NCBI GenBank assembly: GCA_050260105.1
Contig: JBLNBR010000021.1
Location: 46,245-110,244, forward strand
Reading direction: 5' to 3'
From: Ignavibacteriales bacterium
Lineage (GTDB): Bacteria > Bacillota > Sulfobacillia > JABLXB01
DNA length: 64,000 nt
Shown here one piece after another: positions 8,110-64,000 of the stretch. The stretch's first letter is position 1. Each line of letters opens with the position of its first letter. The translations under genes were made by a program, and so were the position numbers. The notes beneath the pieces are model-generated. The model was not told where the DNA came from, ran no database searches, and worked only from the letters and a program-made list of their open reading frames with translations.

Positions 8110-9291
8110 ATGGGTATACGGGGGTCACTTAAGGCCGCGGCCTGCGTCGTGGTGTTCGCCGTGTGCGCGTCGGTGGTGGCGGGCTGCGGCGGGGGTGGCG
8201 GCGCGAAGGAAATCAAGATTGGGTGCTTCTACCCGCTCACCGGAGCGAACGCCGCGAAGGGCCAGCTCAACAAGAACGGCACGCTACTGGCGATCGAGGA
8301 CATCAACGCGGCAGGAGGCGTTCTGGGCTGCAATCTCGTTCCGGTGTTCGAGGATACCCAGTCCAAGAAGGAGAACGTCCCCAACGTCGTCCGCAAGCTC
8401 ATCGAGCAGGACAAGGTGGTCGTGCTGATAGGCGAGGTCGCCAGCTCCAACTCCATCGCGGCGGGTCCAGTCGTGAAGCAGCTGAAAGTGCCCGCCATCG
8501 CCCCCACGTCGACCAACCCGAAGGTGGTGCAGGACCCCGAGGATCTCACCAAGCTCAATCCCTACTACTTCCGCGGGTGCTTCATCGACCCGGTCCAGGG
8601 TACCGTGCTCGCCAACTTCGTCTCCAAGAACCTCAACAAGACGAAGGCGGCTCTCCTGTACAACATCGCCCAGGACTACAACAAGGGGCTGGCCGAGTAC
8701 TTCAAGGATAAGTTCCAGAAGAACGGCGGCACAATAGTCGCCGAAGAGACGTACCCAGATCAGACCCAGGACTTCAAGCCCCAACTCACCAAGATCAAGG
8801 AGGCCAATCCCGAGGTAATCATAACGCCCAACACGTACGCCGAGAGCGGCCTGATCTTGAGGCAGGCGAAGGAACTCGGGATCAACGCCATATTCCTCGC
8901 GGGCGACTCGACTCACGCCCCCAAGACGCTCGAGATCGCGGGGGACGCCGCGGAAGGCCTGTACCTCACCACGCTGTACGTTGGCGATGACCCCGATCCC
9001 AAGGCGCAGGCGTTTGCCAAGAAGTACCGCGACAAGTACAAGGAGGAGCCGAACAGCAACGCCTGCTTCTCCTACGAATCCACAATGGTGGTGGCGGAGG
9101 CCATAAAGAAGGCGGGGAAGGCCGATCCCCAGGCCATCCGCGACGCCATGGAGCAAGTCAAGGACCTCGACGTCCCGTCCGGCAAGTTCACGATCGACCC
9201 GGCGACCCACAACCCGCTGAACAAGCCGGTCGTCGTCATACAGGTCAAGGACGGCCAGTACAGGTTCGTCACGAAGGTGACTCCTGAGTGA
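8110..9291 (+). CDS. branched-chain amino acid ABC transporter substrate-binding lipoprotein (LivJ/LivK family)
   Basis: Signal peptide plus lipobox (VVAGC followed by a Gly-rich linker) and a periplasmic-binding-protein type I fold. RBS GGAGGTG lies 9 nt upstream of the ATG. Confidence 0.85.
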   Translation: MGIRGSLKAAACVVVFAVCASVVAGCGGGGGAKEIKIGCFYPLTGANAAKGQLNKNGTLLAIEDINAAGGVLGCNLVPVFEDTQSKKENVPNVVRKLIEQDKVVVLIGEVASSNSIAAGPVVKQLKVPAIAPTSTNPKVVQDPEDLTKLNPYYFRGCFIDPVQGTVLANFVSKNLNKTKAALLYNIAQDYNKGLAEYFKDKFQKNGGTIVAEETYPDQTQDFKPQLTKIKEANPEVIITPNTYAESGLILRQAKELGINAIFLAGDSTHAPKTLEIAGDAAEGLYLTTLYVGDDPDPKAQAFAKKYRDKYKEEPNSNACFSYESTMVVAEAIKKAGKADPQAIRDAMEQVKDLDVPSGKFTIDPATHNPLNKPVVVIQVKDGQYRFVTKVTPE

Positions 9292-27175: not shown

Positions 27176-28723
27176 TCAGCCCGCCTTGAGCCGCCTGCCG
27201 CGTCTCACGCGAAGCCTCTGCAGGACCGCCGGCGGCAACGAACTCTCCTTCGCGGCCGTTCTCCCTGTTATCGCGGCGAGCGCCGCCGAATCCATCCTCT
27301 CGTTCCTGAGGAGGCACTCGCTCACGGCGTCTACCTGCCGCGCGCGAGCGGCCAGCAATCCCTTCACTCGCTTCTCTTGATCCGCTACTGTCTGGGCGAT
27401 CGCCCGCGCGAGTATATCGCCTGGAAGCGAGTGGGGATCCACGATGCCCAGCGGCGACATTCCCGACAGCACTATCTTGCGCGCAATCTCGACAGCCCTG
27501 TCGAAATCCTCCGCTGCGCCTGTACTGCGGGAGCCGCATACCATCTCCTCCGCCAGCGCCCCCGCTATGAGTGATGCGATCTCGTCCTCGAGATGCTCCT
27601 TCGCGTAGATGTATTGCTCGCTCTTCGGGGTGCTGCGCACGTAGCCCAGCGCTCCCCCTCTCGGTGAAATGGTTATCGAAGCCACGGAGCCGGGCCTCAG
27701 GCATTCGCCGACGATCGCGTGCCCCGCCTCGTGTACCGCTATCCTCCGGAGATCCTCATTTGACGGCCTGCGCTCGATCTTCTCCCCTAGGATGACCTTT
27801 TCGATCGCGTCCTCGAGGTGGCGTTGCTCGATCTCGTGCACGCCCTCCCTCATGGCAAGGATCGCTGCCTCGTTGGCGAGGCTCTCGAGGTGCGCGCCGG
27901 TGAACCCGAACGTTCCGCGCGCTATCCGGTCGAGGTCCACGCCCTTCGCCAGGGGCTTGTTTCTGGTGTGCAGTTCGAGGATTTGCAGGCGCGCCTCCCT
28001 GTCGGGCACCTCCACGCGGACCACCCTGTCGAACCGGCCGGGCCTCGTGAGGGCGGGATCGAGCAGGTCAGCCCTGTTTGTGGCCGCTATCACGAGGATC
28101 CGCACATCGTCCCCCACCGAAAGCCCGTCCATCTCCACGAGCAGCTGGTTTATGGTCTGATCGTACTCGAGATGACCGACATTGTGCCCTCGCCTGCCGC
28201 CGAGCACCTCGATCTCGTCAATGAAGATGATGGCCCCCTTCTTGCCGGAGTTCTTGGCCATCTCCCGGGCGTTCCTGAACAATTCACGCACCCGCTGCGC
28301 TCCCACGCCGGCGTACACCTCTACGAACTCACTCCCGCTGGTGGCCACGAACACCGAATCTACGTAGTTTGCGGCCGCCTTGGCGAGCATGGTCTTCCCC
28401 GTGCCGGGCGGGCCCGTGAGCAGAAGTCCCTTGAGCGGCCGTATGCCGAGCCTGGTCATCGCCTGCCTTAGCTTGATGAAGTCGAGCGCTTCGAGCAGTT
28501 CCTTCTTGGCTGATGACTGGCCGCCGATATCCTTGAAGGTCACCGGCGACACGCTCCCCGGGGTCACCGGCGCGAACCGCTTCGTGAGACCTCTCAGGCC
28601 TGATGTCTGGACCAGCACATATGCGAGGGCGCCGAGGAACACGACGGGAAGCACGTTCACCCCGGCGATGGCCAGGTATATCAGTGCGCCGGCCAGGGTT
28701 CCAATGGCTATCTCCTTCCACAT
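27176..28723 (-). CDS. short-form FtsH-like AAA+ zinc metalloprotease (two closely spaced TM helices, no periplasmic domain)
   Basis: Walker A GPPGTGKT, second region of homology, and HEAGHAIV zinc site with a downstream AEDFDRA. At 515 aa it is ~100 aa shorter than canonical FtsH. Confidence 0.8.
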   Translation of the reverse strand: MWKEIAIGTLAGALIYLAIAGVNVLPVVFLGALAYVLVQTSGLRGLTKRFAPVTPGSVSPVTFKDIGGQSSAKKELLEALDFIKLRQAMTRLGIRPLKGLLLTGPPGTGKTMLAKAAANYVDSVFVATSGSEFVEVYAGVGAQRVRELFRNAREMAKNSGKKGAIIFIDEIEVLGGRRGHNVGHLEYDQTINQLLVEMDGLSVGDDVRILVIAATNRADLLDPALTRPGRFDRVVRVEVPDREARLQILELHTRNKPLAKGVDLDRIARGTFGFTGAHLESLANEAAILAMREGVHEIEQRHLEDAIEKVILGEKIERRPSNEDLRRIAVHEAGHAIVGECLRPGSVASITISPRGGALGYVRSTPKSEQYIYAKEHLEDEIASLIAGALAEEMVCGSRSTGAAEDFDRAVEIARKIVLSGMSPLGIVDPHSLPGDILARAIAQTVADQEKRVKGLLAARARQVDAVSECLLRNERMDSAALAAITGRTAAKESSLPPAVLQRLRVRRGRRLKAG

Positions 28724-28729
28724 GTCAGA

Positions 28730-29305
28730 TCACACCCCCGTTGGGCTACCGCGGTACTCTGCCGGCCTTGGCAGGACCTCGTAGAGATAATGCCCGTTGA
28801 GATGCAGTTGGACGTAGACACTGCTATCGCCAACGAACACCCTATGGCGATCCAGCCCCGCCTCCTTGGCGAGTCGCGCCACCTCGGCGGACATGCCGGA
28901 GAACCTTCCCGTGACAAGCGCCTCCTGGATATGGAAGTGCATCGAATAGTACGCGTCCGAGAGCGCCTCGTCCCGAGAGTCTTCGACGACGACCTTGACA
29001 TCCTGGCCCTTTAAGACTTCTTCCGCGCTGTCCTCAAGGCCGCTGACCGTCTCGTGCAGATCCGGCACGTCTCCCAGCTTCACCCGGACGACTGTGACGG
29101 GCTTCCTCTTCAGCACGGTATAAGAGAGGACGGACGGTGATTGCCTGAACACCTTGTCCAGGGGCTCGCCGACCGTGAACCTGCCGTAGAGCAGGTTGCC
29201 CAGGTACAGCACGGCGAAACTGACTGCTATGCTGGCCACCACCGCGGCCACCTGTCTTGGATTGGGTCTCACCCTCACACCAGCTCCACGCAATGGCATA
29301 GTCAA
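28730..29305 (-). CDS. hypothetical membrane-anchored protein (N-terminal TM helix, ~150-aa extracytoplasmic domain)
   Basis: VAAVVASIAVSFAVLYLGNLLY is a TM helix followed by a charged globular region. The ORF ends 7 nt before the FtsH-like start. The likely start is an internal GTG/ATG a few codons in. Confidence 0.5.
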   Translation of the reverse strand: MTMPLRGAGVRVRPNPRQVAAVVASIAVSFAVLYLGNLLYGRFTVGEPLDKVFRQSPSVLSYTVLKRKPVTVVRVKLGDVPDLHETVSGLEDSAEEVLKGQDVKVVVEDSRDEALSDAYYSMHFHIQEALVTGRFSGMSAEVARLAKEAGLDRHRVFVGDSSVYVQLHLNGHYLYEVLPRPAEYRGSPTGV

Positions 29306-49229: not shown

Positions 49230-50243
49230 CTATTCTGTTCTCGAGATCTCCAGGTCCTTGGCGGGACCACCCTCCCGGCCGGCAATGCCGAGGTCGACGC
49301 CGTTGAGGCTCAAGCTCATGGTCCATGGGGCGCCAACGCGGATCACCAGCCGGTCGGTCGCCCGCCATGCCCTCCGCGCCCCGGGTTCGAGGAGCTCCTC
49401 GGCGATCACCTTGCCGTCGGCCTCCACCCTCACCCAGCACGGGCCGTCCTTCACGGAGGCCGAGAGGTCGAGCGCCTCCGCCTTGATGCCGATCACAGTA
49501 AGATACTCGGACCTGTCCTCTCTGGCTATTTCCGGTTCCGCCTCTGCGGGTGGCGCTGGCGGTGGAGCCTGTTGCTCGGGACTGGCCGGCGGGTTTGTTC
49601 CGGGTGGCGGGGCGGGTTGAGACTGCGCTTCCACCGGTGCAGGGGGTCCCGCCGCCGGCGGCGGGACCATGTCGTTCATGATGCGCGTGCTCATTACCAA
49701 CGCAAGGATGGCGGTCAGGAACAGCACGAACGGCAGCCTCCACACCCGGGCGGGCGATCGCGGACGCCGGCGCGCGGGGCTCGGCGCCGGGGCCTCCTGC
49801 GGGGCCGGCGCAGCCTCTACCGGAGCGGCGTCCCGGGGTGGAACGGCCTCTCCAGCGGTGGGAGCGGGGCTTACCGTCGCGGGCGGCTCCGGGGGGGTCT
49901 TCGCCGCCTTGTATTGCCGGACGAGCGCCTGGCCGTCAAGTCCGAGGAAATCCCCGTAGATTTTCAGGAATCCCCGGAAATAAACGTCGCCGGGCGATGA
50001 TGTATCCTCACCGGCTTCCAGCGCTTGGAGATACCTCTTCCGTATCTTGGTTGCAGCCTGGACATCGTCGAGCGACAGGCGGCGGCTCTCACGCCTCGAG
50101 CGGAGGAGGCCTCCGATTTCGGCCGGTCCCCACGGTGCCCCCACGCACTGCTCTGCAGGCGTCTCCCGTCCGGACTCCACCGTCTCGGACGCGCCGTCCG
50201 GGATTATCGTGCCAATCCCCCTGCCTAACCCCCGCTTCGACAT
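49230..50243 (-). CDS. rodZ: cytoskeleton protein RodZ (HTH_XRE, TM, Pro-rich linker, DUF4115)
   Basis: LSLDDVQAATKIRKRYLQALE HTH, TM helix VWRLPFVLFLTAILALVM, Pro/Ala-rich linker and a C-terminal beta domain. The N-terminal start is uncertain. Confidence 0.7.
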   Translation of the reverse strand: MSKRGLGRGIGTIIPDGASETVESGRETPAEQCVGAPWGPAEIGGLLRSRRESRRLSLDDVQAATKIRKRYLQALEAGEDTSSPGDVYFRGFLKIYGDFLGLDGQALVRQYKAAKTPPEPPATVSPAPTAGEAVPPRDAAPVEAAPAPQEAPAPSPARRRPRSPARVWRLPFVLFLTAILALVMSTRIMNDMVPPPAAGPPAPVEAQSQPAPPPGTNPPASPEQQAPPPAPPAEAEPEIAREDRSEYLTVIGIKAEALDLSASVKDGPCWVRVEADGKVIAEELLEPGARRAWRATDRLVIRVGAPWTMSLSLNGVDLGIAGREGGPAKDLEISRTE

Positions 50244-50370
50244 GGCATGTCACTTCCTTCGGCACACTGCTTCGCTTGTGGGATGCCACATTCCTCCCAG
50301 AATTGACGCATTTCGACCCCCGTCCGTTCCAGTCAGGCCCGGTCCATGTGTTGCCGGCCCGGCGCCGGCC

Positions 50371-51702
50371 CTACGGGTAGACCCTGTACAGCATCCGTGG
50401 GAAGGCTATGGTCTCCCTCACGTGCTCGAGCTTGCAGACCCAGGCCACTGTCCTCTCGATTCCCAACCCGAACCCCGAATGCGGCGTCGAACCGAACCTC
50501 CTCAGATCCGCATACCACTTGTATGTCTCCTCTGGCAGGTTATGCTCCTTCATCCGGCGTTCTATCGTCGCCAGATCGTCTATCCTTTCCCCGCCCCCGA
50601 TTATCTCGCCGTACCCTTCGGGCGCGAGCAGGTCCGCCCCGAGCACCACTTCCGGCCTGCGTGGGTCGGGCTTCATGTAGAACGCCTTCATCCCGGCGGG
50701 GAAGTGCGTGACGAACACCGGCTTCTCGAACTGCTCGGATATCGCGGTCTCGTCGGCCGCCCCCAGATCGTCTCCCCACTTGATCTCATGCCCGGCCTTC
50801 CTGAGACGGTCTATTGCCTCGTCGTAGGTTATCCGCGGGAACGGCGGGTCCACCTTCTCGAGCTGTTTCGTGTCCCGCCCCACGGACTCGAGGTCCGCCC
50901 TGTTGTTCGCCAGTACGCTTCTGACAATGTGCGTGATGAGGCCCTCCTGGATCCGCATGTTCTCCTCGAAGTCGCAGAAGGCGGCCTCCGGCTCCACCAT
51001 CCAGAACTCGATGAGGTGCCTCCTCGTCTTCGATTTCTCGGCGCGAAAGGCCGGGCCGAAGCAATAGACCCTGCCCAGGGCCGCTATCGTCGCCTCGTTG
51101 TACAACTGCCCGCTCTGCGCCAGGTACGCCTTCTCATCGAAGTAATTCGTCTCGAAAAGGTTGGTTGTGCCCTCACACGCCGCGGGCGTTAGCACGGGCG
51201 TGTCCACGTTGACGAACTCGTTGGTATCCAGGTACTCGCGGATTGCGCGTATGACTTCCGCCCTGATGCGGAGGATTGCCTGCTGCCTGGGGGCCCTGAT
51301 CCAGAGGTGCCTGTGGTCCATGAGGAAATCAACACCGTGCTCCTTGAGCTTGATGGGATAGTCCTCGGCCATCTGGACGATCTGAAGGCGCTTCAGTTCC
51401 AGTTCATACCCGCCCGGCGCCCTCGACTCCTCCCGCACCAGGCCCCGGACGATAATCGACGATTCCTGCGTCACCTTGTCGCACAGGTTGAAGTCCTCTT
51501 CCGCGACCTGCCCGCGCACCGCCACGGCCTGGGCGAGGCCGCTACCGTCCCTCACGATCAGGAAGTGTATCTTCCCGCTGGACCTCTTGTTGTAGAGCCA
51601 GCCCCTCAGTTCCACCTCTTGGCCCACGTGTTCGTTCAGACGGCGTATCAGCGTTTGCTCCACGCTACGCACCTCCGCTACTTCTCCTTCATCTTCTTCC
51701 AC
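50371..51702 (-). CDS. asnS: asparagine--tRNA ligase
   Basis: N-terminal OB fold ([22 protein letters not shown]) and class II motifs ([14 protein letters not shown]). The ORF track N-terminal 90 codons are Arg/Gly-rich junk. Start at GTG 51702, overlapping the end of the regulator gene. Confidence 0.85.
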
Positions 51703-53576
51703 AGGGTGGTCCTGCTTATCCCAAGCCGCCGCGCCACCTCCGACCTGTTCCCCGCGCACGCTCGATCGTATTGGCCTATGATGTCCATGATCATATCGTC
51801 GAGTGAACCCGCCGTGACGGTTACCTCGGTCAAGGGCCTCTCCTCCGCCTCTCCCTGTGGCGCGATCTCCTCCAATACCATGCGCTCGACGGCGTCCGCC
51901 GGAACGAGCGGCATCGAGCGTATCGCCGCCACAAGGCGCTTTATCAGACCCTCCAGCTCCCGGACGTTCCCGGGCCAATGGTATCTCTTCAGCCTCGCGA
52001 GAGACACGGCGGAAAGCGTAACCTGCTTGGCGCCCCCGAGCAGCCTGCCCGCAATCACATCAAAGAGGGCGGGGATATCGTCCTGGCGTTCCCTCAACGG
52101 CGGGACGTTCAAGCGCATGTCCGCAAGTCTCCAGTAGAGGGCCTCGGAGAATTGAGCCGAGGCGACCATCTGTTTCAAATCCCTGGAACTGGAGGCGATT
52201 ACCCTGGCATCAACGGGCCTGGGCTCCGTCCCCCCGACCCTCCACACAGTCCGGTGCTCTATCGCCGCGGCCACCCTGGTCTGCAACTCTTGCGGCAGGG
52301 CCCATACCTCTTCCAGGAAGACCGTGCCGCCGTGGCATATTTCGAATACGCCGGGGCTCGACTTGCGGGCCGCCGGAAACGCGCCCTTCTCGAAGCCGAA
52401 CAGGCGCCTTTCGAGGGCGTCGGCGGCCAGCCCCTCGCATGAGACGCGGCCGAACGCCCCGGACCGCCTTATGCCCGCGTGGTGGATGGACTGCGCGAGG
52501 ACCTCTTTGCCCGTTCCCCTCTCTCCGCAAATGAGGACGGGGGCGTCCCCCAGGGCGTATCGCTTGGCCCGCTCAACGGCTTTCCTCATGGCGCCGCCCG
52601 TGGCGGGGATATCATCGAATGTGTACACCACCGGTTCCTGTTCGGCGCCTTCCGGAGAAGAGAGCTGGTCCACGAGGCGTTCCGCGGCGCTCACGTCGTA
52701 CAGCACACACACGACGCCCGCATTCTGGCCCTCAGCCTTCCACGGCACAGCCTCTATGCCGACGCGCGACTCTCCCAGCCTGGCTATTCGCAGGCCTGTG
52801 CCCTGCTCGCCCTTCAGTGAGGGGAGCGCAGGGGAGCCGCTGAGGGCTTCCGACGCCGGGCGCCCCACGTCCGCGGGCGTGGCGGCCCCCATGGCCGCCG
52901 CCGCCCGGTTGCACAACCTTATAGTGCCCCTGGGATCGGTGGCGATCACCCCGACCGGCAGCCCGTCGAGCACCTCGGAGTAGTTCACCCTCCGCTCTCC
53001 TGTGTCCCGGCATACCTTCACGAGCTCGTGGCAGTTCTCTATCGCCTGCCTCACCGAGGCCTTCCCCATGCCGATCGCCACGCCCTTCAGGCCCTGGGAC
53101 CTTGCCATGTCCACGGTAACCTGTCCGCCGACCACGACTTCGTATCCGGCCTCCTTGACCTCCGCGAGGACGCGGCGTACCTCCTGCGGCGTGCGCCCGG
53201 GGGTGAACTCCTGGAGTTCGATGTCCATGGATGCGCCAAGCACAGCGGGGTCGAGCACCGAGCCGCCGAAGTGCAGCAGGGCAACGCGTTTCCCAAGTCT
53301 GCGGGCGCCGGCTATGGCCGTCACCACGTCAAGCGGGCCCGGATTGCACACCACGACTGGAAGCGATGTCACGGAGCGCACAGCGTCGGCGAGGAATCCC
53401 CTTGCGATGATCGCCTCAGCGCCCGTCGATTCCGCCTTCCGTACCGCGTGTAACACTTCCTCCGCGCCGGCCTGCAGGACCATGACATCCTCCTGCATCT
53501 CCCGCGCCGTGTCAGATATCAGCGAAAAGAGCGGCCCATCGGGAACAATCGCCGCCAGCCTGGCCACTCGGACCAC
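51678..53576 (-). CDS. sigma54-dependent transcriptional activator with PrpR-type N-terminal domain (PrpR_N-PAS-AAA+-HTH)
   Basis: PrpR_N-like N-terminus, GERGTGKE Walker A, GAFTGA-equivalent EKGAFPAA and a C-terminal Fis-type HTH ([16 protein letters not shown]). Confidence 0.85.
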
Positions 53577-53606
53577 CCCCCGTAGCCTTCCTGTCGTTCC
53601 ATTTCT

Positions 53607-54440
53607 TCACACATCCGCCGTTGACCTGCACAACAGGGAGACATCACGGGGCGGTAGAAATCGCTCCACGGCCTCCATTACGCCCGCGGCGTGCGGGTTG
53701 CGCGTGACGTACCTCACCCGCTCCTTCAACTCGGGGCGCGCGTTCGACACCAGGACGCCCGCCCCCGCCACCTGGAGCATGTCCATGTCCGACTCGCTAT
53801 CTCCAACTGCAACGACATCACCGGTGGATACCGATAGCATCCGGCACAGGGTCTTCAGAGCGTTTCCCTTTGAGACGAGGGGGTTCACGAATTCGACGAG
53901 GTGCGGGAGGGTGCGCATCACCCTGGCAATCCCCCGGGAGGCCGCCGAGTACTCCTTCACCGCGCGGGCGGCTTCCTCCGGGGACATCCGGAGGACAATG
54001 TGGGTCGCGTCGCCGCCGCTCACGTGCGAATTCAGGTTTTCAACCACGGTTACGGGGACCCCGAGGGCCCGCGAGTACTTCTCCACGTGTTCGCCCGGGG
54101 TGTCCGTGAGGATGCTGTCGTTCACGAACAGATACCTGCAGTGGTCCCTTCCAACCATCCGGAGTACCGCCCGGGCGGCCTCGGTCCCGAGGGCTAGCCT
54201 GTCAAGGACGGCGCCGCCCGGTGTGCCGATGATCGCGCCACCACCGGCGATGATCGCGCAATCGACCCCTGCCTCCAGGGCCACCCTCCTCGCCGAGGCG
54301 AAGATCCTCCCGGTGGCGATGGAGAACAGGGCGCCCCGTTCCCTTACGGTAGCCACAACTCGCCTCACCGTCTCATCAACGCAGTGCCTGTCGTCCAGCA
54401 GCGTTCCATCAAGGTCTACAATGACGAGTCTCCCTTGCAA
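53607..54440 (-). CDS. Cof-type HAD-IIB phosphatase
   Basis: LVIVDLDGTLL motif I and a C-terminal GDSESDMDML motif. Start at TTG 54440. The ORF track fuses it to ~300 junk codons read antisense to the NlpC/P60 gene. Confidence 0.75.
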   Translation of the reverse strand: MQGRLVIVDLDGTLLDDRHCVDETVRRVVATVRERGALFSIATGRIFASARRVALEAGVDCAIIAGGGAIIGTPGGAVLDRLALGTEAARAVLRMVGRDHCRYLFVNDSILTDTPGEHVEKYSRALGVPVTVVENLNSHVSGGDATHIVLRMSPEEAARAVKEYSAASRGIARVMRTLPHLVEFVNPLVSKGNALKTLCRMLSVSTGDVVAVGDSESDMDMLQVAGAGVLVSNARPELKERVRYVTRNPHAAGVMEAVERFLPPRDVSLLCRSTADV

Positions 54441-54569
54441 GGCCTCTTGCCTCCCATCGAGGCGCAACGCGCCACAACGCCCGAATACCCTGCGTGCTGG
54501 CAGGCAGCATATAGCATTGCAGGATTCTGCCAGGTTCCGTCGAAGACGGGGCTTGTCAGGGGGTGTGTG

Positions 54570-55259
54570 ATGAACACCAGGCGTTTCCTGCTCACAGTGG
54601 CATTCGCCGTTGCCATCGCGGGTTCCTCGCGGACCGCGGGCGCGGCGCCCGCATCCACCGTGCTGAAAAACGGTTCGCGCGGTCCGGCCGTCGTTTCCCT
54701 CCAGGAGGTACTCGCCGGAAAGGGCTATTACGCAGGCAAGGCGGATGGAGTGTTCGGCGCGCGGACAAAGGCGGCGGTCATTGCGTTCCAGAAGGACGCG
54801 GGCCTGGCGCCCGATGGGATTGCGGGACCCCGCACCCTCGAGGCCCTGCGCGGACCGGCGGAACCAAGCAGGGGCCTTCCCTCCGCCGCGATCTCCCGCC
54901 TGATAGAGACGGCCAAAGGCTTCCTCGGCACCAGATATGTGTGGGGTGGTACCACCCCCCGGGGCTTCGACTGCTCGGGGTTTGTATATCACGTGCTGAA
55001 TCTTTGTGGAATCGAGATCCCCCGCGCACTGGAGGACCAGTTCACGCAGGGGGCGGCCGTTCCCCGGAAGGACCTGCGCCCGGGGGACCTCGTGTTCTTC
55101 TCGACCTACAAACCAGGGCCGTCGCACGTCGGGATATACCTCGGCGACGGCACCTTCATCCACGCGAGCTCCGCCCGCAAACAGGTCACCACCACACCCA
55201 TAGACAAATCGTACTACGTCAAGAACTGGGTAGGCGCGCGGCGGCTCGCCCCTAGTTGA
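54570..55259 (+). CDS. NlpC/P60-family peptidoglycan endopeptidase with PG_binding_1 domain
   Basis: Signal peptide MNTRRFLLTVAFAVAIAG, PG-binding repeat, and catalytic Cys/His (FDCSGFVYHV…HVGIY). Confidence 0.8.
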   Translation: MNTRRFLLTVAFAVAIAGSSRTAGAAPASTVLKNGSRGPAVVSLQEVLAGKGYYAGKADGVFGARTKAAVIAFQKDAGLAPDGIAGPRTLEALRGPAEPSRGLPSAAISRLIETAKGFLGTRYVWGGTTPRGFDCSGFVYHVLNLCGIEIPRALEDQFTQGAAVPRKDLRPGDLVFFSTYKPGPSHVGIYLGDGTFIHASSARKQVTTTPIDKSYYVKNWVGARRLAPS

Positions 55260-55284
55260 CCTAATCCGTGTTACGTATACCTCA

Positions 55285-55325
55285 CCCTCCGCGGGCCGGT
55301 CCGGGCCGTGGCGGCCGGCGGAGGG
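55285..55325. terminator. GC-rich hairpin between convergent NlpC/P60 and cobO (possible bidirectional terminator)
   Basis: 8-bp stem CCCTCCGC…GCGGAGGG with a structured ~25-nt loop. There is no U tract on either side. Confidence 0.3.
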
Positions 55326-55339
55326 CATCATTGCGCCGG

Positions 55340-55888
55340 TCAGAATTCGATACCCTCGCGCGCGGGCACACCCTTCCTGTAGTGGTGTTTCACCTCTTTG
55401 ACCTCGCTGATCAGGTCGGCAATCTCCGTGATGGGTTCGGGGGCGCCCCTGCCGGTCAATACAATGTCGACGTGCGCGGGCCGGGACTTGATGAGTTCGA
55501 TCACGTCTTCCACCTTTACCAGCCCGTAGTCGATCGCCACGTTCACCTCGTCGAGGATGACCAACCCGTGACGGCCGCGCCTGACTATTTCCCTCGCGAG
55601 GTCCATTCCCCTGGCCGCGAGGTTCATATCAGCCTCCGACGGGTTCTTCCTGTTCACGAACTCGTCGCGGCCGGAGGGTACTATCGTCAGCTCCTTGAGG
55701 TATTCGCGCGCCGCCTTGCGCTCGCCGTATTCGTTCCCAGGCCCCTTCATGAACTGGATCATGTACACTTCCTTGCCGTGCCCGATGGCGCGCAGCGCGA
55801 GGCCCAGCGCCGCGGTCGTCTTACCCTTACCGTTCCCCGTGTACACGAGGACGAGGCCCCTCTCCTCACTATCCCCGCTCTTCTCCAT
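55340..55888 (-). CDS. cobO: cob(I)yrinic acid a,c-diamide adenosyltransferase (CobO/BtuR family)
   Basis: P-loop TGNGKGKTTAALG and CobO-family length and motifs. Confidence 0.8.
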   Translation of the reverse strand: MEKSGDSEERGLVLVYTGNGKGKTTAALGLALRAIGHGKEVYMIQFMKGPGNEYGERKAAREYLKELTIVPSGRDEFVNRKNPSEADMNLAARGMDLAREIVRRGRHGLVILDEVNVAIDYGLVKVEDVIELIKSRPAHVDIVLTGRGAPEPITEIADLISEVKEVKHHYRKGVPAREGIEF

Positions 55889-55901
55889 CTCCCAGCGCCC
55901 C

Positions 55902-57071
55902 CTAGCTCCTGAAATCCCGCTTCACTCTCTCCATGAACGAACTATCTGCTATCAGGTCGAGGCATGTCATTGCCATCGCCTTCGCCGCCGCCAGCATCGC
56001 CAGGTGGGCCCGCTCCGTGCCCGCGGCCCTGGCGAATTCCTCCGTGTGCCCCGGAATGTCCCCGGATGTGATCGCCACGTACGGGTGTATGGCGGGGAGT
56101 TCCTGGCTGACGTTACCGATGTCCGAAGAGCCGAGCCCGCCCTTGAGCGCCAGCCCGTCGTCCGGCTTCATCCCCAATTCGGTTATGTATTTCCCGAACC
56201 TTCCCGACATGGTGGGGTTGTCCTTGCGTTCGGCGTAGACGAGGCCCAATTCCACCGCCGGCTTGGCGCCGGTCATCATGCCCGCTCCCTGCACACAACG
56301 GCGCACCTTTTCCACCACTTCGTCCAGGCCGGCGCGGTTCTTCGCCCTGACGAGTATCTCAGCCTCGGTATAGTCGGGAACCACGTTGGGCGCCGAGCCA
56401 CCCTTGGTGATGATCCCGTGTATTCTCACGTCTTCCCTCAGGTGTTGCCTGAGTGAGTTTATCCCCGTGAACGTCAGGATCATGGCTTCCAGCGCGTTGA
56501 TCCCCTCGTGAGGCGCTCCCGCCGCGTGCGCCGCCCTCCCTTTGAACGTCACGTAGAGGGAAACAGCAGCCAGCGACGGCCGGAATACCATCGTCCTCGA
56601 GGAAGGATGGACCATCATAGCCGCGTCGATCCCCTTGAATTGACCGTTCTCCAGCATGGTGATCTTACCGCCCGCCGACTCCTCCCCCGGCGTGCCCATC
56701 ACCACAATCGTGCCTGGATGGCTCTCAAGCGCAGCCTTCACGGCCACCCCGGCCCCCACGCCCATCGCGGCGATCAGGTTGTGGCCACATCCGTGCCCCA
56801 CGCCGGGCAGGGCGTCGTACTCACAAAGGACGGCGACGGCCGGCGATCCCCTTCCGTAGGTCGCCTTGAAGGCGGTGGGCATGCCGCCCACACCCTTCTC
56901 CACGCCGAATCCCCTGCTTTCGAGGAACCCGGTCAGCCACTCCACCGCGTTGTGCTCCTCCAGGGAGACCTCGGGATTGTGAAGGATGCGTTCCGACAGC
57001 GCCGTCAATTCCCCCGCCATCGATTCGACGGCTTGAGCCGCGGTTTTCCTCATCTTCTCCAGGTCCGCCAA
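55902..57071 (-). CDS. M20-family amidohydrolase (AbgB / aminobenzoyl-glutamate utilisation-like)
   Basis: GHGCGHN metal site. The start is 13 nt downstream of the preceding stalk-domain ORF. Confidence 0.8.
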   Translation of the reverse strand: MADLEKMRKTAAQAVESMAGELTALSERILHNPEVSLEEHNAVEWLTGFLESRGFGVEKGVGGMPTAFKATYGRGSPAVAVLCEYDALPGVGHGCGHNLIAAMGVGAGVAVKAALESHPGTIVVMGTPGEESAGGKITMLENGQFKGIDAAMMVHPSSRTMVFRPSLAAVSLYVTFKGRAAHAAGAPHEGINALEAMILTFTGINSLRQHLREDVRIHGIITKGGSAPNVVPDYTEAEILVRAKNRAGLDEVVEKVRRCVQGAGMMTGAKPAVELGLVYAERKDNPTMSGRFGKYITELGMKPDDGLALKGGLGSSDIGNVSQELPAIHPYVAITSGDIPGHTEEFARAAGTERAHLAMLAAAKAMAMTCLDLIADSSFMERVKRDFRS

Positions 57072-57083
57072 GCCATTACCACC

Positions 57084-57326
57084 TCACTCGCCGCCTGGGT
57101 CTTCACAGAACCGGACATGGACATTGTACTTCACCGGATCCCATTCGATACCCCCGCCGAGCGCGGCGACAACGGCCGCCGGCTGGACCATCACGCGGTC
57201 GCACACGATGCGCAGGGGCGCGCCCAACGGGATCTCCCTCCCGTTGACGAGGGCCACCGGCGAATCGGCGGCCATGACGACCGACACACCGTCCCTCGTG
57301 CACGACACGCTCCTCGACGCGCCGTC
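57084..57326 (-). pseudogene. in-frame continuation of the PQQ-propeller gene after the amber codon (second stalk domain)
   Basis: Reading through TAG 57327-57329 continues in frame: …GFKVA*DGASRSVSCTRDGVSVVMAADSPVALVNGREIPLGAPLRIVCDRVMVQPAAVVAALGGGIEWDPVKYNVHVRF. This completes the first stalk domain and gives a second one. Confidence 0.5.
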
Positions 57327-58664
57327 CTAGGCCACCTTGAACCCCGCTGCTTCGAACAACGCCCTGCAGGGCGCCCACGTCCTTCCCTCAATTATGACCG
57401 GACTGACGTCCTCAAACTGGACGTTCTTGCCGTTCACTATCAGAGCGACGGGTGACCACGCCTCCAACTCCCCGCCGGTTCCCCCGACGATCAGGCCCCT
57501 CCGTCCTCCCACAGGTCCCGACCCAACCCGCCACGGGATCTCGTTTCTCCACAACTCCTCGCCCGTGACCGCTGAGAGTACGTAGATCGCGTCCGGGCCC
57601 GGCACTTCGAAATACGTGCCTGTGTACAGCCTCCCGCCGGACACCACAGGGGGCCTGACCAGGGCATCGTGCTGATAGGTACGCTTTCCTGACTCCCTCG
57701 TGACGACGGGGGCCTTCCACTGCCATCTTATGGCGCCCGTTTCGAGGTCCACCGCGTACAGCCACCCCGTGTTGCCCGCGTAGATGGTGTCGCCGGATAC
57801 CGCCGGGCCCGACCACTGGTTGCTTGCCCCCCTTACCGGTCCCCACAGCACCGTCCCCGATTGCGCGTCGAGCGCGTACAGGCCGCCCGTCTTGAACCCC
57901 GTCGCCGCGACGACCACCCTCCCGCCGCTGAAAACCACGCTGTTCCCGAGCCAGCCCTGCAGGGGGGTTTTCCACTTGACAGCGCCCGTGGCCTCGTCCA
58001 GCGCGTAGACTGCCCCACCGCCCTCCCCCGTTCCGAGGGCGGCCACGAACACGAGCCCCCCGCCCACCGCAGGCGAGGCGGAGATCAGGTCTCCCGGAAT
58101 CACGAAATCCCACAGGAGTCGCCCATCAGCCAGGGAGAGGCTGCATATCCGGCCGTCATACGCGGCTACAACCGCCCGCCCGCCGGCCACCGCTGTTGAA
58201 GAGGTAACGGACAGCCCCGCCCGGAACCTCCACTTCTCCACTCCCGACTCCCGGTCAATCCCGAACACGTAGCCGTCGGCGGCGGCAGTCACGACCACGC
58301 CCTCTCCCACGGCCGGCCCGGAGCGTATCCTGGCGCCGTTCTCGGGCTCAAATCGCCAGCGCTGCACGCCTGTGTCCAGGTCAAGCGCGTACACGCACCC
58401 ATCGTCACAGCCCACGTACAGGCAATCGCCGGAAATCGCCGCCGGCGAGTGCGCCGCCCCCGGCAATACCGTGCCCCACCTGCGGTACAGAGCCAGCCCA
58501 TACGGGCCGTCCGCCTCGTGGGTCCTGGCCGCCCCGCCACCATACTGATCCCATCCGGCGTCCATGGCGACAACCACGTGAGGAAGCGCGGCCGGTATGA
58601 ACATCCCCAAAACGATCCCCGCCGCGATCCCCGCCAGGGTCTCGCGCCGCAACATCCCTCGCAT
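57327..58664 (-). CDS. secreted PQQ-like beta-propeller repeat protein with C-terminal copper-amine-oxidase-N1-type stalk domain (terminated by in-frame TAG)
   Basis: N-terminal TM/signal, then repeated …DGxVYALDxxTGxxxW… propeller blades. The C-terminus VALIVNGKNVQFEDVSPVIIEGRTWAPCRALFEAAGFKVA* stops exactly at the conserved Trp position of the stalk domain. Confidence 0.75.
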   Translation of the reverse strand: MRGMLRRETLAGIAAGIVLGMFIPAALPHVVVAMDAGWDQYGGGAARTHEADGPYGLALYRRWGTVLPGAAHSPAAISGDCLYVGCDDGCVYALDLDTGVQRWRFEPENGARIRSGPAVGEGVVVTAAADGYVFGIDRESGVEKWRFRAGLSVTSSTAVAGGRAVVAAYDGRICSLSLADGRLLWDFVIPGDLISASPAVGGGLVFVAALGTGEGGGAVYALDEATGAVKWKTPLQGWLGNSVVFSGGRVVVAATGFKTGGLYALDAQSGTVLWGPVRGASNQWSGPAVSGDTIYAGNTGWLYAVDLETGAIRWQWKAPVVTRESGKRTYQHDALVRPPVVSGGRLYTGTYFEVPGPDAIYVLSAVTGEELWRNEIPWRVGSGPVGGRRGLIVGGTGGELEAWSPVALIVNGKNVQFEDVSPVIIEGRTWAPCRALFEAAGFKVA

Positions 58665-58726
58665 GTGTATACCTCCGTCTCAACGCCAGGTTTCGTCACA
58701 TACAATGTGTCGAGGAGGGGATTCGG

Positions 58727-59326
58727 ATGCCGCATGTTCCCCAATACCTGGCGCAGTATGTGGGTCAGGCGCGTATCACCATCGACGTCTCGTCAATCAC
58801 CCTCGCCCTTCAGGTCAACGGCCGTCACCACGCGACTTATCCCTGCGCGGTCGGCAAGCCCAGCACCCCGTCACCGATCGGTTCTTGGCAGATAGCCATC
58901 AAGACCGTGAACCCGTCGTGGGAGGTCCTCGGAACCCGTTGGATGGGCCTCAACGTCCCATGGGGCAACTACGGGATCCACGGCACCAACGCCCCCTGGT
59001 CCATAGGGAGACAGATATCTAACGGTTGCATACGCATGTACAACGAGAACGCCGAAGAGGTATTCGACCTGGTGGCCATAGGAACGCCGGTGGATATCAC
59101 CGGTTCCTACGGCGCCTCCTCCGGCGCCCTGAGGCTCGGCGCCACCGGCCAGGCCGTGGTGGAACTGCAGAACCGGCTCATCGCCCTCGGGTACCTCACC
59201 GGCTTCGCAGACGGTGTCTTCGGCCCTACCACGGACACCGCCCTCAAACGCTTCCAGGTTCACAACGGCCTTGCGCCGGACGGGATCGCGGGACCGTTGA
59301 CCCGAAGGGCCCTGGGCATGTGGTAG
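58727..59326 (+). CDS. L,D-transpeptidase (YkuD domain) with C-terminal PG_binding_1 domain
   Basis: Catalytic HGT…SNGCIRM motif and a C-terminal peptidoglycan-binding repeat. RBS GAGGAGGGG. Confidence 0.85.
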   Translation: MPHVPQYLAQYVGQARITIDVSSITLALQVNGRHHATYPCAVGKPSTPSPIGSWQIAIKTVNPSWEVLGTRWMGLNVPWGNYGIHGTNAPWSIGRQISNGCIRMYNENAEEVFDLVAIGTPVDITGSYGASSGALRLGATGQAVVELQNRLIALGYLTGFADGVFGPTTDTALKRFQVHNGLAPDGIAGPLTRRALGMW

Positions 59327-59332
59327 GGCGGC

Positions 59333-61609
59333 TCACACGCCGTCCTGGCCGAAAATGCGCTGGTATTCCTGGAATGTCAGGCGTACCTCGCGGGGCTTCG
59401 AACCCTCGTACGGGCCGACGAAACCCCTCTCCTCCATCGCGTCTATGAGCCTTGCGGCGCGGGCGTAGCCTATCGGCAGTTTTCGCTGCAGAAGGGACAC
59501 GGACGCCTGGCCCGCCTCAACGACGATCTTGACTGCCTGCGGGAAGAGATCGTCGGCCCCTTCCTGCCGGTTGCCCGATTCCTGCTCCGGCTCGGTCACT
59601 ATCTCCTCGTACCTCGGTCCGCCCTGCTCCCGCACGAAGTTTACCACTCGCTCGACCTCGCGCTCGTTTATGTAGGCCCCCTGCGCGCGCACCGCCTTTG
59701 TGGCGCCCACGGGGAAGAACAGCATGTCCCCTTTGCCCACGAGCTTCTCAGCGCCGGCCGCGTCGAGTATGGTCCTCGAATCTATCTGGCTCGAAACGGT
59801 GAACGCTATCCTCGACGGGATGTTGGCCTTGATTGTGCCCGTCACCACGTCGACGGAAGGCCTCTGCGTGGCCACCACGAGGTGTATCCCCGACGCGCGG
59901 GCCATCTGGGCGAGCCTGAATATGGCGTCCTCCACGTCCACGGGCGCGACCATCATGAGGTCACTCAGCTCGTCTATCACGACAACGATGAAAGGCAGCC
60001 GCTCCTCCCCGAGCGCCGCGGCCGCCTGATTATACTTGGCGATGTCCCTGACGCCCGCGCTGACGAACGTCTGGTACCGCTTCTCCATTTCCCTCACGAC
60101 CCACCGGAGGGCGCCCGCCGCCTTCTTCGGGTCGGTAACGACGGGGGCAACCAGGTGGGGTATCCCGTCGTACACGCTGAGTTCCACCATCTTGGGGTCA
60201 ACGAGAAGCATCTTGACCTCATCCGGCTTGGACTTGAACAGGATGCTGGTGATTATGGAGTTGATGCACACGCTCTTGCCGGAACCCGTGGCCCCCGCGA
60301 TGAGCACGTGGAGCATCTTCTCGAGCGTGGAGACTATGGGTCTCCCGGCGATGTCCTTGCCCAGGGCCACCGTCAGGTTGGAGGGTGACTCCTTGAATTC
60401 CTTCGTGTCGAGCACATCCCTGAGGTGGACCAGGGTGACTTCTGTGTTGGGGACCTCGATCCCCACCGCCGATTTCCCGGGAATCGGGGCCTCTATCCTC
60501 ACGTCCTGGGCCGCCAGGTTCAGCGCTATGTCGTTGGCAAGGCTGGTGATGCTGGCAACCTTGACACCGGGGCCCGGCTGGAGTTCGAATCTGGTCACGG
60601 CGGGACCGCGGCTCACCTGAACTACCTTCGCTTGCACCCCGAAGCTCTGGAGGGTCTCTTCAAGGGTCTTCGCCCTGTCCTCGATGTCCCTGTCCGGCCT
60701 CAAGGCTTTCGGCCTTCCCTGCTGCCTGTCCAGGAGCGAAAGCGGCGGGATCTCATAGGGGCCGTGCGTGCTGAGGGTCAATTGCTCGGGCGCAGCCGCG
60801 CCACCCTCGCCCCCGGTCGCCCTTGCCTGCCTGGACGCCCTCCTCGATGCCCTTGACAGCGGGATAACGACTCCGGCGCCGTCTCCAGGACGCGTCTCCG
60901 CCGCCGCATCCACACAGGGGGGTTGGCCGCCACCGGTCTGCACGGCCGCCGGGGCCACTGCCGGAGCCTTCTCAACCGCATCACCCACGGTGCACGCCGC
61001 TTCGCCCTCATCAGACAGGTCCGCCGCTTCGTAGAAGAAATCCTCCATGGACCGCTTCAAAGAGGTGACGCACAACCTGATCCCCTTCACCACGGCCCCC
61101 GCGATCTTCCCCGGCGACGCGTTGGCCACCAGGCTCACCGCGACGACCCCCGCAATAACGGCGGCGACCCACAGCCCCGACTGCCCGAAGCCCTTCCTCA
61201 GCAGGACCGCGAGAACCGCACCGATCACGCCGCCGCCGTACCCCCTTCCAGCGTTCACGTACTCCGTCCCAGGCTCGATCGAGGAGTGAAGCACCAGGGC
61301 CGCGTCCAGAACGGCGACGATCGCGCCCGCCGTCCTCGGGGTAAACGGCGGCAACCTCCTGCGGACCATGATGAATACACCCAGAGCCGCCGGGCCCGCG
61401 GGGATGAGCGGGGCCATGTCCCCAAGCAGGACCCTGCACGACCTCACGAGGGCATCGCTCACGATGCCGCTGGCCTCGCCCAGAAACGACATTACCAGCA
61501 ACACACCGAGGCCGACCAGGGCCAGCCCGGCGGCCTCGTATTTCAAATCCCGCTGTACCTTCCCAAGGAATTCGCGCAACGGCGCCACCTCACGAGAAGC
61601 CCGGCTCAT
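59333..61609 (-). CDS. ftsK: DNA translocase FtsK/SpoIIIE
   Basis: Four N-terminal TM helices, a long Pro/Ala linker, motor domain (Walker A GATGSGKS) and a gamma wHTH. Convergent with ldt with only a 6-nt gap. Confidence 0.9.
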
Positions 61610-61670
61610 CCGCGCCTTACGCTGGCGCTTACCATCTACCGGGTTCGCCACGCGGGGGTGAACTCCTCCC

Positions 61671-62519
61671 TCACCTGGCATACATTCCCATCCACAGCGC
61701 GACCGCCCCCGCCGCCCAGCAGTAGTACGCGAAGGATTTCAGCCCGCCCTTCCGCAGCAGGCCGATCAGGTACCGGAGGGCGACGGTGCCCGATACGAAC
61801 GCCACGATCGCCACGATCGCGAGCGCGGCAAGCGGCGCTTCCTCCGTTCCGGCGGCCCCGGTGATATCCACGGCTGCGTTCAGGTAATCCCGCACGCCGA
61901 GGAGGGCGGCGCCGGCGGTCGCGGGGATCGAGAGGAGGAACGAGAAGCGCGCCGCCTCCTCGCCGCGTAACCCCGAGGCCAGACCCGCGGAGATGGTCAT
62001 GCCGGATCGGGACACACCGGGCGCGATGGCCAGGGCCTGCGACACGCCCACGATAAATGCCCTCCCCGGGCCCATCTCACTCGTGGAAAGCCCCCTCGCC
62101 TGCCGCCTCCCCCCACTTCCCCGTCCGGACACGAACAGCACGAAACCGGTGAGGAGCAGCCCCAGGCCGGCGAACACGGGGCTCTCGAACATCCTTTCGA
62201 ACGCGTCTTTCCACACGATGCCGGCCACCCCAGCCGGGATTGAGCCCAACAGCACGAAGGCAGCCGCCCTGAACCCGGGGCGCCGCCTCCCCCCGGCGCT
62301 GACAAGGCCCGACAGGAAACCCACGGCAAGGCTTATCGCATCCCCGCCGTATACTGTCAGGACGGCCGCGAGCGTGCCGAGGTGAGCCGCGACCTCGATC
62401 CCTATTCCCGCGGAATGCAGGTTGAAGAGACCCTGCGCGATCACGAGGTGGCCCGAACTCGACACGGGGAGGAACTCGGTGATCCCCTGCACGAGTCCAA
62501 GGACAATCCAGCTGATCAA
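61671..62519 (-). CDS. uppP: undecaprenyl-diphosphatase
   Basis: BacA N-terminus [27 protein letters not shown] start 10 nt after RBS AAGGAGG. The ORF track 5' extension is junk. Confidence 0.85.
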
Positions 62520-62577
62520 CGATCCCCTGCCTCCTTTTCCAACGACCTGTGGTTCGACGGAGGAGGCCGCCGACCCT

Positions 62578-63531
62578 TCAGTCGCGCGGGCCGGGAACCG
62601 CCCTTTCGACGGCGGACGCGACGGCGTCGACAAACGGGAGCGCCAGCAGGGTCCCCACCACGTTGAACAGGGAGTGCGCATTAGCCAGCTGTGAGGCGAT
62701 GGAGGCGCTCGTGCAGGACACAACCGCCACGAACGGCTGGAGCAGGGCCATGAACAGGCCGGCACAGGCCGAATTGAACAGGAGGTGGGCGGCCGCCGCC
62801 CGCCTGGCGTACACGGTCGACCAGGCGCCGGCGATGATCGCCGTCACGCAGGTACCCATGTTGGCGCCGATGATGACGGGCACCGCCCCCGCCAGGTCGA
62901 GGCGGCCGTTCGTACACGCGGAGATCGTTGCCGCTATGGTGACGCTGGACGACTGGACGGCGGCGCTGATCGCGGCCCCACCGATCAGGCCGAGAATGGG
63001 GCGCCGGCCGAGTACGCGAGCGACTGCGGCGAATCGCTCCCCCGACGCGAGGGGACCGGTCGCGCCGCCTATCAGGCGCAGCCCCAGGAACAACAGGCCG
63101 ACCCCCACGGTTGTCCAACCCACACGCCGGATGGTCACGGCGCGGGCCGGCCGGCCCCTCGCCAACAACAAAACAAACAGGCCCGCCAGCACCACCGCCT
63201 GGGCGTGGCGGTGCACGCTGAAGGCGAGCATCTGGACGGTCACTGTGGCGCCGATGTTCGCTCCCAGGATCAGTCCGATCGCCTCGCGAAGGGATATCGC
63301 CCGGGCCCCGGCCAGGGCCACGATGAGGGTCGTGGTCACCCCTGACGACTGGACCAGGCCGGTGACCGCCCCTCCCAGGATCACGCCCCGGCCTGGAGTG
63401 CCCGCGAGGAACCGCAACGCCCCGCGCAGTCCCGTCTCGGCCAACCCCTCCAGTCCTGAGCGGACTATCCGGACGCCTGCGAGAAACAGCCCGAATCCGG
63501 CGCCGAGCCGGCACACGATCGCGACGTACAC
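62578..63531 (-). CDS. Na+/phosphate cotransporter family protein (NptA-like, transporter domain only)
   Basis: Duplicated GANIGTTVT / GANMGTCVT motifs, 317 aa. Confidence 0.8.
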   Translation of the reverse strand: MYVAIVCRLGAGFGLFLAGVRIVRSGLEGLAETGLRGALRFLAGTPGRGVILGGAVTGLVQSSGVTTTLIVALAGARAISLREAIGLILGANIGATVTVQMLAFSVHRHAQAVVLAGLFVLLLARGRPARAVTIRRVGWTTVGVGLLFLGLRLIGGATGPLASGERFAAVARVLGRRPILGLIGGAAISAAVQSSSVTIAATISACTNGRLDLAGAVPVIIGANMGTCVTAIIAGAWSTVYARRAAAAHLLFNSACAGLFMALLQPFVAVVSCTSASIASQLANAHSLFNVVGTLLALPFVDAVASAVERAVPGPRD

Positions 63532-63620
63532 AGGAGTATCCCCTCCGCGCCCGCGTAGTACGACTGGCGGCCCAACGGCGCACCCAAGTAATGCTATATC
63601 GCGCGGCGCGGTTTATGCCG

Positions 63621-63839
63621 TCAGGAGGCCCCTCCCCAGAGGCTGACGAGGCTTCCAGGCTGCGTCGCGGGGTCCAGGAAATCCTGGGGGTCCGTGGAGA
63701 TCACCCGAACCACCCGCCCCTCGGTCGGCGACACGGGTTCCACCTGGATGATCCTGCCTCGCACCCTGATCTCGATGGTCCGGCGCTTCTCGTCCTGCTG
63801 CATGACCTCTTCAACGGGCATCACCGTGTAAAGGATCAA
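63621..63839 (-). CDS. ylzJ: YlzJ-like small protein
   Basis: MILYTVMPVEEV… N-terminus typical of the YlzJ family. The position relative to tepA (upstream) and ftsK (downstream, two genes further on) resembles the B. subtilis tepA-ylzJ-spoIIIE order. TTG start overlaps the tepA stop (TTGA). Confidence 0.55.
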   Translation of the reverse strand: MILYTVMPVEEVMQQDEKRRTIEIRVRGRIIQVEPVSPTEGRVVRVISTDPQDFLDPATQPGSLVSLWGGAS

Positions 63840-64000
63840 TGGCTCAGGCTGACCCCCTCTCGCCCGGCGGCCAACTGCCTCACCTTGGCGACGGCCGCGG
63901 AGATACCTCCCACCTCGTCGATCAGCCCCACGCTCACGGCGTCGCGCCCAACGAGGACGGTCCCGATGTCGCGCGCGAGTTCGCCCGTCCTGAACATCAG
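63836..64000 (-). CDS. tepA: ClpP/SppA-like translocation-enhancing protein TepA, 3' end (5' outside window)
   Basis: Frame translation …ELARDIGTVLVGRDAVSVGLIDEVGGISAAV… matches the C-terminus of the ClpP/TepA family. Confidence 0.5.
   Translation of the reverse strand: MMFRTGELARDIGTVLVGRDAVSVGLIDEVGGISAAVAKVRQLAAGREGVSLSH

Follow-up and report, generated by a model that had tools for sequence, protein, structure and literature searches.

The 64-kb window (the whole stretch of 64,000 nucleotides analyzed here) contains a gene for a probably exported beta-propeller protein, the reading frame of which is interrupted by an amber codon at a position where its orthologs encode tryptophan. We consider it probable, at roughly three chances in four, that a real nonsense mutation, very young on the evolutionary scale, has occurred here, in which the TGG codon of the conserved Trp-446 became TAG by a G-to-A change at position 57328. 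Such an event is ordinary and of a known type, and we do not regard the stop as a recoding signal. The features of the locus are collected in Table 1.

The interrupted reading frame

From its ATG, the gene runs for 445 codons on the minus strand (58664..57327) to a TAG terminator (57329..57327). Beyond it, the same frame stays open for 80 further sense codons (57326..57087) before it reaches a TGA (57086..57084). Around the stop, the minus-strand letters read GGG TTC AAG GTG GCC TAG GAC GGC GCG TCG. The first possible start codon of the open frame past the TAG is the GTG at 57308, from which a second listed open reading frame (ORF; 57084..57308) begins. A preliminary description of this DNA had taken the two ORFs as lying in the same frame and parted by the TAG, and both its coordinates and its reading were correct. 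Among the same-frame adjacent ORF pairs in the window, this is the only one across which a domain continues, and therefore the juxtaposition is not due to chance. The other four pairs (with stops at 9289, 14131, 21865, and 28730) were considered as split genes and rejected, each of them consisting of separate complete genes.

Table 1. Features of the interrupted propeller gene and its surroundings (window coordinates)
Feature	Coordinates	Strand	Content or basis
Truncated ORF, 445 codons plus TAG	57327..58664	-	Signal peptide, 8-bladed BamB-like/PQQ_2 beta-propeller, first third of Cu_amine_oxidN1
Shine-Dalgarno GGAGG, 7 nt upstream of ATG 58664	58672..58676	-	Sequence reading
Probable Sec signal peptide, residues 1 to ~34	58563..58664	-	Hydrophobicity, ortholog N termini; inferred
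Beta-propeller region, residues ~38-405	57450..58553	-	Pfam PQQ_2 and Beta-prop_ACSF4; model of ortholog P0004 versus BamB
Single Cu_amine_oxidN1 domain, read-through residues 410-516, interrupted by the stop	57117..57437	-	Pfam PF07833
Amber TAG in frame, TGG (Trp) in orthologs; mutated base 57328 (G to A, coding strand)	57327..57329	-	
Orphaned, still intact tail: 80 sense codons plus TGA, last two thirds of Cu_amine_oxidN1	57084..57326	-	Pfam, GC, dN/dS
GAGGAG, 1 nt, GTG 57308: possible but poorly spaced internal restart site	57306..57315	-	Sequence reading
M20 peptidase/amidohydrolase, 389 aa, TTG start	55902..57071	-	Pfam Peptidase_M20 and M20_dimer

Domains of the encoded protein

With the tryptophan restored, the product has 526 aa and consists of a signal peptide, a PQQ_2 propeller, and one Cu_amine_oxidN1 domain. 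A basic N terminus (MRGMLRRE) is followed by a hydrophobic stretch with a Kyte-Doolittle peak of 2.3 over residues 10 to 27, and this core is followed by VVA and then MD, with the presumed cleavage between the two. The N termini of the orthologs have the same basic-then-hydrophobic shape, with low pLDDT values in the ortholog model. From hydrophobicity and these N termini, we infer a probable Sec signal peptide and thereby export of the protein. A lipobox cysteine is absent, the N terminus (MRGMLRRETLAGIAAGIVLGMFIPAALPHVVVAMDAG) being without any cysteine.

The propeller scored 143.4 bits against Pfam PQQ_2 (PF13360), well above the gathering threshold of 27.6. Against the propeller of PQQ-dependent dehydrogenases (PF01011), there was no full-length match, only short ones at the level of single repeats (best stretch, profile positions 55 to 87 of 595). 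We used the AlphaFold model of the full-length ortholog with 61% identity (P0004; mean pLDDT of 89) for structural comparison. Its propeller resembled BamB structures (Foldseek E value of ~1e-21 and TM-score on target of ~0.8, at 16 to 19% sequence identity), and both have the 8-bladed PQQ_2-type fold. However, BamB, which is a lipoprotein of the outer membrane and belongs to the BAM complex, has no extra C-terminal domain, while the protein described here has no lipobox cysteine and its gene neighbors are YkuD and NlpC/P60 rather than BAM genes. The likeness is one of fold only, and the protein is not a BamB ortholog.

The stop falls about one third into the Cu_amine_oxidN1 domain (PF07833). 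When the two pieces were fused with Trp in place of the stop, they gave a single match of 89.0 bits over residues 410 to 516, covering profile positions 2 to 107 of 108 (threshold, 24.2), in keeping with the earlier proposal that a read-through translation with Trp fits the stalk-domain consensus. Unfused, the upstream piece scored 31.5 bits (profile positions 1 to 35, covered by the last 42 residues of the truncated ORF) and the downstream piece 42.9 bits (positions 38 to 107). The domain is made up of two internal repeats of ~50 aa that are 33% identical, each ending in G-x-x-[VI]-x-W-D, and the residue replaced by the stop is the Trp of repeat 1. In the P0004 model, the equivalent Trp436 lies in a beta-strand (433 to 437) directly past the alpha-helix of the repeat, and repeat 2 has a matching Trp and arrangement. 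What had been described as a second intact stalk domain ending 13 nt before the M20 gene is indeed intact, but it corresponds to repeat 2 of a single Pfam domain, and the spacer measures 12 nt (57083..57072).

A related accessory module of an exported protein is found in the CuZnSOD of Paenibacillus lautus (PaSOD; PDB 8IMD). The motif ...GRTxVPxRxxxExxGxxVxWD... is common to both (E value of 0.072 to 8imd_A). There, the module sits at the N terminus and is responsible for homodimerization (PMC10432803), whereas here it follows a propeller, consists of two repeats, and may serve in dimerization, wall association, or some other role. An anchoring role for Cu_amine_oxidN1, as given in the preliminary description, is an assumption; in the literature found on the function of this domain, no such role is documented, and the only experimental datum was the dimerization of PaSOD.

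Orthologs and the ancestral codon

A search of 5.8 billion proteins returned only six clusters with the combination of signal peptide, PQQ_2 propeller, and Cu_amine_oxidN1. One (P0001) is the exact 445-aa product, called on a Logan contig (L001) from run SRR24035586, and the other five are orthologs with identities of 82, 72, 61, 52 to 55, and 47 to 48%. The family, encoded beside YkuD and M20 genes, is rare and uncharacterized. Homologs that consist of the propeller only, with ~430 to 440 aa and no C-terminal domain, were abundant in the protein search.

All five orthologs (P0002 to P0006) have Trp at the column of the stop and read on through this position, and the codon is TGG in the DNA of each of the loci L002, L003, L004, and L005. 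The change was therefore a single G-to-A transition at 57328. This bears out the preliminary description, which had postulated one TGG-to-TAG transition at a conserved Trp and had expected TGG in the orthologs, none of which ends at the position of the stop. With a stop one base away from the sense codon of the orthologs and homology that continues in frame past it, the gene would appear, by sequence comparison, to have been disrupted by a nonsense mutation.

Closer relatives or conspecifics were sought by scanning genome and metagenome contigs, which gave only relatives of 71 to 72%. When exact matches were looked up, neither the tail ORF (74 aa) nor the M20 protein in a version of 382 aa gave any, and the 389-aa M20 protein gave one only in run SRR24035586.

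State of the sequence beyond the stop

The 80 codons downstream of the TAG contain neither an indel nor a second stop. Their GC content by codon position (0.70/0.50/0.86) is typical of genes in the window. Amino acid identity to the closest ortholog (L002) was 80% downstream and 83% upstream of the stop, and the tail was also 80% identical to P0003. Relative to L002, the tail had a dN/dS ratio of 0.35; on the other side of the stop, the ratio was 0.16 over the entire upstream part and 0.27 over the 40 codons just before the stop, which belong to the same domain. When substitutions were polarized by lineage with L003 and L004 as outgroups, amino acid changes private to the window lineage numbered 12 upstream (315 codons) and 3 downstream (74 codons; V>I, M>V, and L>F), all of them conservative. 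Relaxed selection on the tail is thus not evident in the window lineage.

A tail without decay means that the stop is either very young in evolutionary terms or not real. The missing decay is equally expected from a sequence error and from continued translation across the stop, so that on this point a gene that is in fact intact, with a tail evolving like the rest of it, or a gene that is still read through, with a tail that still looks selected, would fit as well.

Real allele or artifact

We compared the window with a second assembly, that of run SRR24035586 in Logan. One Logan contig matches 57138..64000 of the window at 100% identity, TAG included, and the adjoining contig continues at 100%, so that the two tile 49902..64000 (~14 kb) without a difference. 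Most likely, this run is also the source of the window, and hence the match is not independent sequencing. The same TAG from a second assembler does mean that the base is not peculiar to one assembler. The two contigs overlap by exactly 30 nt at 57138-57167, inside the tail, where the assembly graph branches 160 to 190 nt downstream of the TAG; the branch is possibly a strain variant or a shared k-mer.

These observations bear on the view that the true or majority codon is TGG and that the A at 57328 is a base-call or polishing error or a minority strain allele, which would leave an intact gene of 526 aa. Apart from the window, the TAG is present in sequence from one run only, which probably represents the same data, and a systematic base-call error or a nonconsensus allele would show up in both assemblies. 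The graph break nearby hints at local strain variation. Furthermore, some sequencing platforms are known to make methylation-dependent base-calling errors at the motif CCTGG, the inferred original sequence here. Nevertheless, no such systematic error is visible in the window, in which 334 intact CCWGG sites stand against 7 CCTAG and 5 CTAGG, and two different assemblers arrived at the same base. Among the ~45 genes in the 64 kb, no other in-frame interruption occurs, which speaks against a generally poor assembly. In short-read or HiFi assemblies, wrong substitutions in the consensus are also far less common than genuine nonsense mutations, by which about 1% of bacterial genes are affected. 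Taking both sides into account, an artifact seems to us unlikely, though it deserves to be kept in mind.

Read-through, reassignment, and restart

The preliminary description had left the choice among a nonsense mutation, a sequencing error, and programmed read-through. The first of these, in its very recent form, fits best given the undecayed tail and the use of TAG as a normal terminator. Programmed read-through found no support: the orthologs lack the stop, an RNA signal is missing, and terminators in the window commonly have the context of this stop. The 45 coding-like ORFs of the window end in TAG (18), TGA (21), or TAA (6), and G is the base that most often follows TAG, in seven cases including this one. 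Within the window, TAG is a normal stop. As a side observation, the tetranucleotide CTAG is strongly underrepresented in the whole window (19 observed versus ~50 expected under a Markov model), despite the large share of ORFs that end in TAG.

Functional read-through, by a suppressor tRNA, pyrrolysine, or a leaky context, would yield both a propeller-only and a full-length form. In its favor, the stop lies within a domain that decoding would restore to completeness, and some Bacillota encode pyrrolysine. Pyrrolysine is specified by in-frame TAG codons in methylamine methyltransferase genes, also of Bacillota, and to this extent the situation is alike. However, the gene family here is a different and unrelated one, and pyrrolysine sites are not known to be exchanged for Trp, which is what the orthologs have at this column. 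The window contains no pyl genes, and no tRNA gene was found within its 64 kb. A programmed signal would be expected to be conserved, but no ortholog has a stop at the site. In the region 56900..57600, no Rfam family matched at E values up to 1, and the 106 nt from the stop onward (57335..57230) folded no better than shuffled sequences (MFE z score of 0.11). The frequent use of TAG as a terminator in the window, the Trp of the orthologs, and the lack of a tRNA gene in the window argue against reassignment of TAG, including pyrrolysine; a read-through signal was rejected because of the missing Rfam match and the unremarkable downstream structure. Overall, we regard functional read-through as very improbable. 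Even less can be said for a special form of it, in which a real amber allele would be maintained by low-level suppression at TAG-G (near-cognate decoding or a suppressor tRNA encoded elsewhere in the genome), so that the cell would secrete the propeller in free form and also make a small amount of a full-length isoform with the Cu_amine_oxidN1 domain. If this long shot were true, it would be a case of newly arisen functional read-through in a bacterium.

Alternatively, ribosomes might terminate at the TAG and restart at the GTG at 57308, which would make this a split gene with a separate 74-aa polypeptide that comprises most of the Cu_amine_oxidN1 domain. The motif GAGGAG precedes this GTG, which is only 21 nt past the stop. 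Against such a restart, only 1 nt separates the Shine-Dalgarno-like motif from the GTG instead of the usual 5 to 9 nt. Unlike its exported partner, the fragment would have no signal peptide, the first third of the domain would be missing from it, and no ortholog is organized as two genes. Judging by the spacing and the missing signal peptide, a restart is unlikely, and we give this arrangement hardly any credence.

Sequence context of the mutation

The inferred ancestral GCC-TGG contains CCTGG, a CCWGG or Dcm-type site (window positions 57325-57331, minus strand). On the other strand, the mutated G faces the inner cytosine of CCAGG, which Dcm-type enzymes methylate, and one may speculate that deamination of 5-methylcytosine took place here, as it would give exactly TGG to TAG. 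Transitions from G:C to A:T are, in any case, the commonest spontaneous change. Reportedly, Coulondre and Miller described in 1978 amber hotspots at CCWGG (Dcm) sites of the Escherichia coli lacI gene that arise from 5-methylcytosine deamination. The CCTGG context is what the two cases share. They differ in that CCWGG is not depleted here (334 observed versus ~342 expected in the window) and in that a CCWGG methyltransferase of this organism would be hypothetical.

Likely consequences of the truncation

If the nonsense mutation is real, the G-to-A change in this exported propeller gene of an uncultured Bacillota bacterium would end translation at residue 445. The product would keep the signal peptide, the whole propeller, and a stub of 36 to 40 residues of Cu_amine_oxidN1 that is predicted to be unable to fold. 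The remaining two thirds of the C-terminal domain would be lost, including the Trp-bearing strand and the whole second repeat, and the 80-codon tail would be an untranslated relic that has had no time yet to decay. Since propeller-only homologs of 430 to 440 aa are common, the propeller may still function as a protein of this kind. The locus would then be a snapshot of domain loss in progress, with the Cu_amine_oxidN1 module just lost.

In these respects, the gene resembles ordinary bacterial nonsense pseudogenes (annotated by PGAP as "internal stop"), in which a one-base change at a conserved sense codon leaves a recognizable frame downstream and intact neighbors. Nothing essential differs; the stop comes late (codon 446 of 526), and only a C-terminal accessory domain is lost. 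For annotation, the locus is best treated as one gene with an internal stop (a pseudogene or truncated allele) rather than as two, with no protein call for the 74-aa ORF downstream.

The M20 gene has a Shine-Dalgarno sequence (GAGGTGG, 57085..57079) that shares bases with the TGA at the end of the tail, and 12 nt lie between this TGA and the TTG start. The same 12-nt spacing precedes M20 in the ortholog L002. From this layout, the M20 gene was probably translationally coupled to the full-length propeller gene. Ribosomes that stop 243 nt early would probably weaken this coupling, a polar effect by which the mutation, if real, may affect expression of the M20 peptidase gene.

Gene neighborhood

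The gene order is conserved and consists of a divergent YkuD L,D-transpeptidase gene, the propeller gene, the M20 peptidase gene, and the gene for a CobO adenosyltransferase. In the window (55340-59326) as well as in L002, L003, and L004, the propeller architecture always lies between the divergent YkuD (with PG_binding_1) on one side and M20 and CobO on the other, with NlpC/P60 near. The group is a small, uncharacterized, cell-wall-flavored cluster of uncultured Bacillota. The ortholog with 61% identity came from anaerobic digester sludge.

Elsewhere in the window, an FtsH-like gene (27176-28723, minus strand) encodes a protein of 515 aa with AAA and Peptidase_M41 domains, in which the membrane segment at the N terminus is short and an extracytoplasmic domain is missing. 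The gene begins 7 nt past the TGA of a same-frame ORF of 191 aa (28730-29305, minus strand). The pair was considered as a second split gene and rejected, as these are two separate genes.
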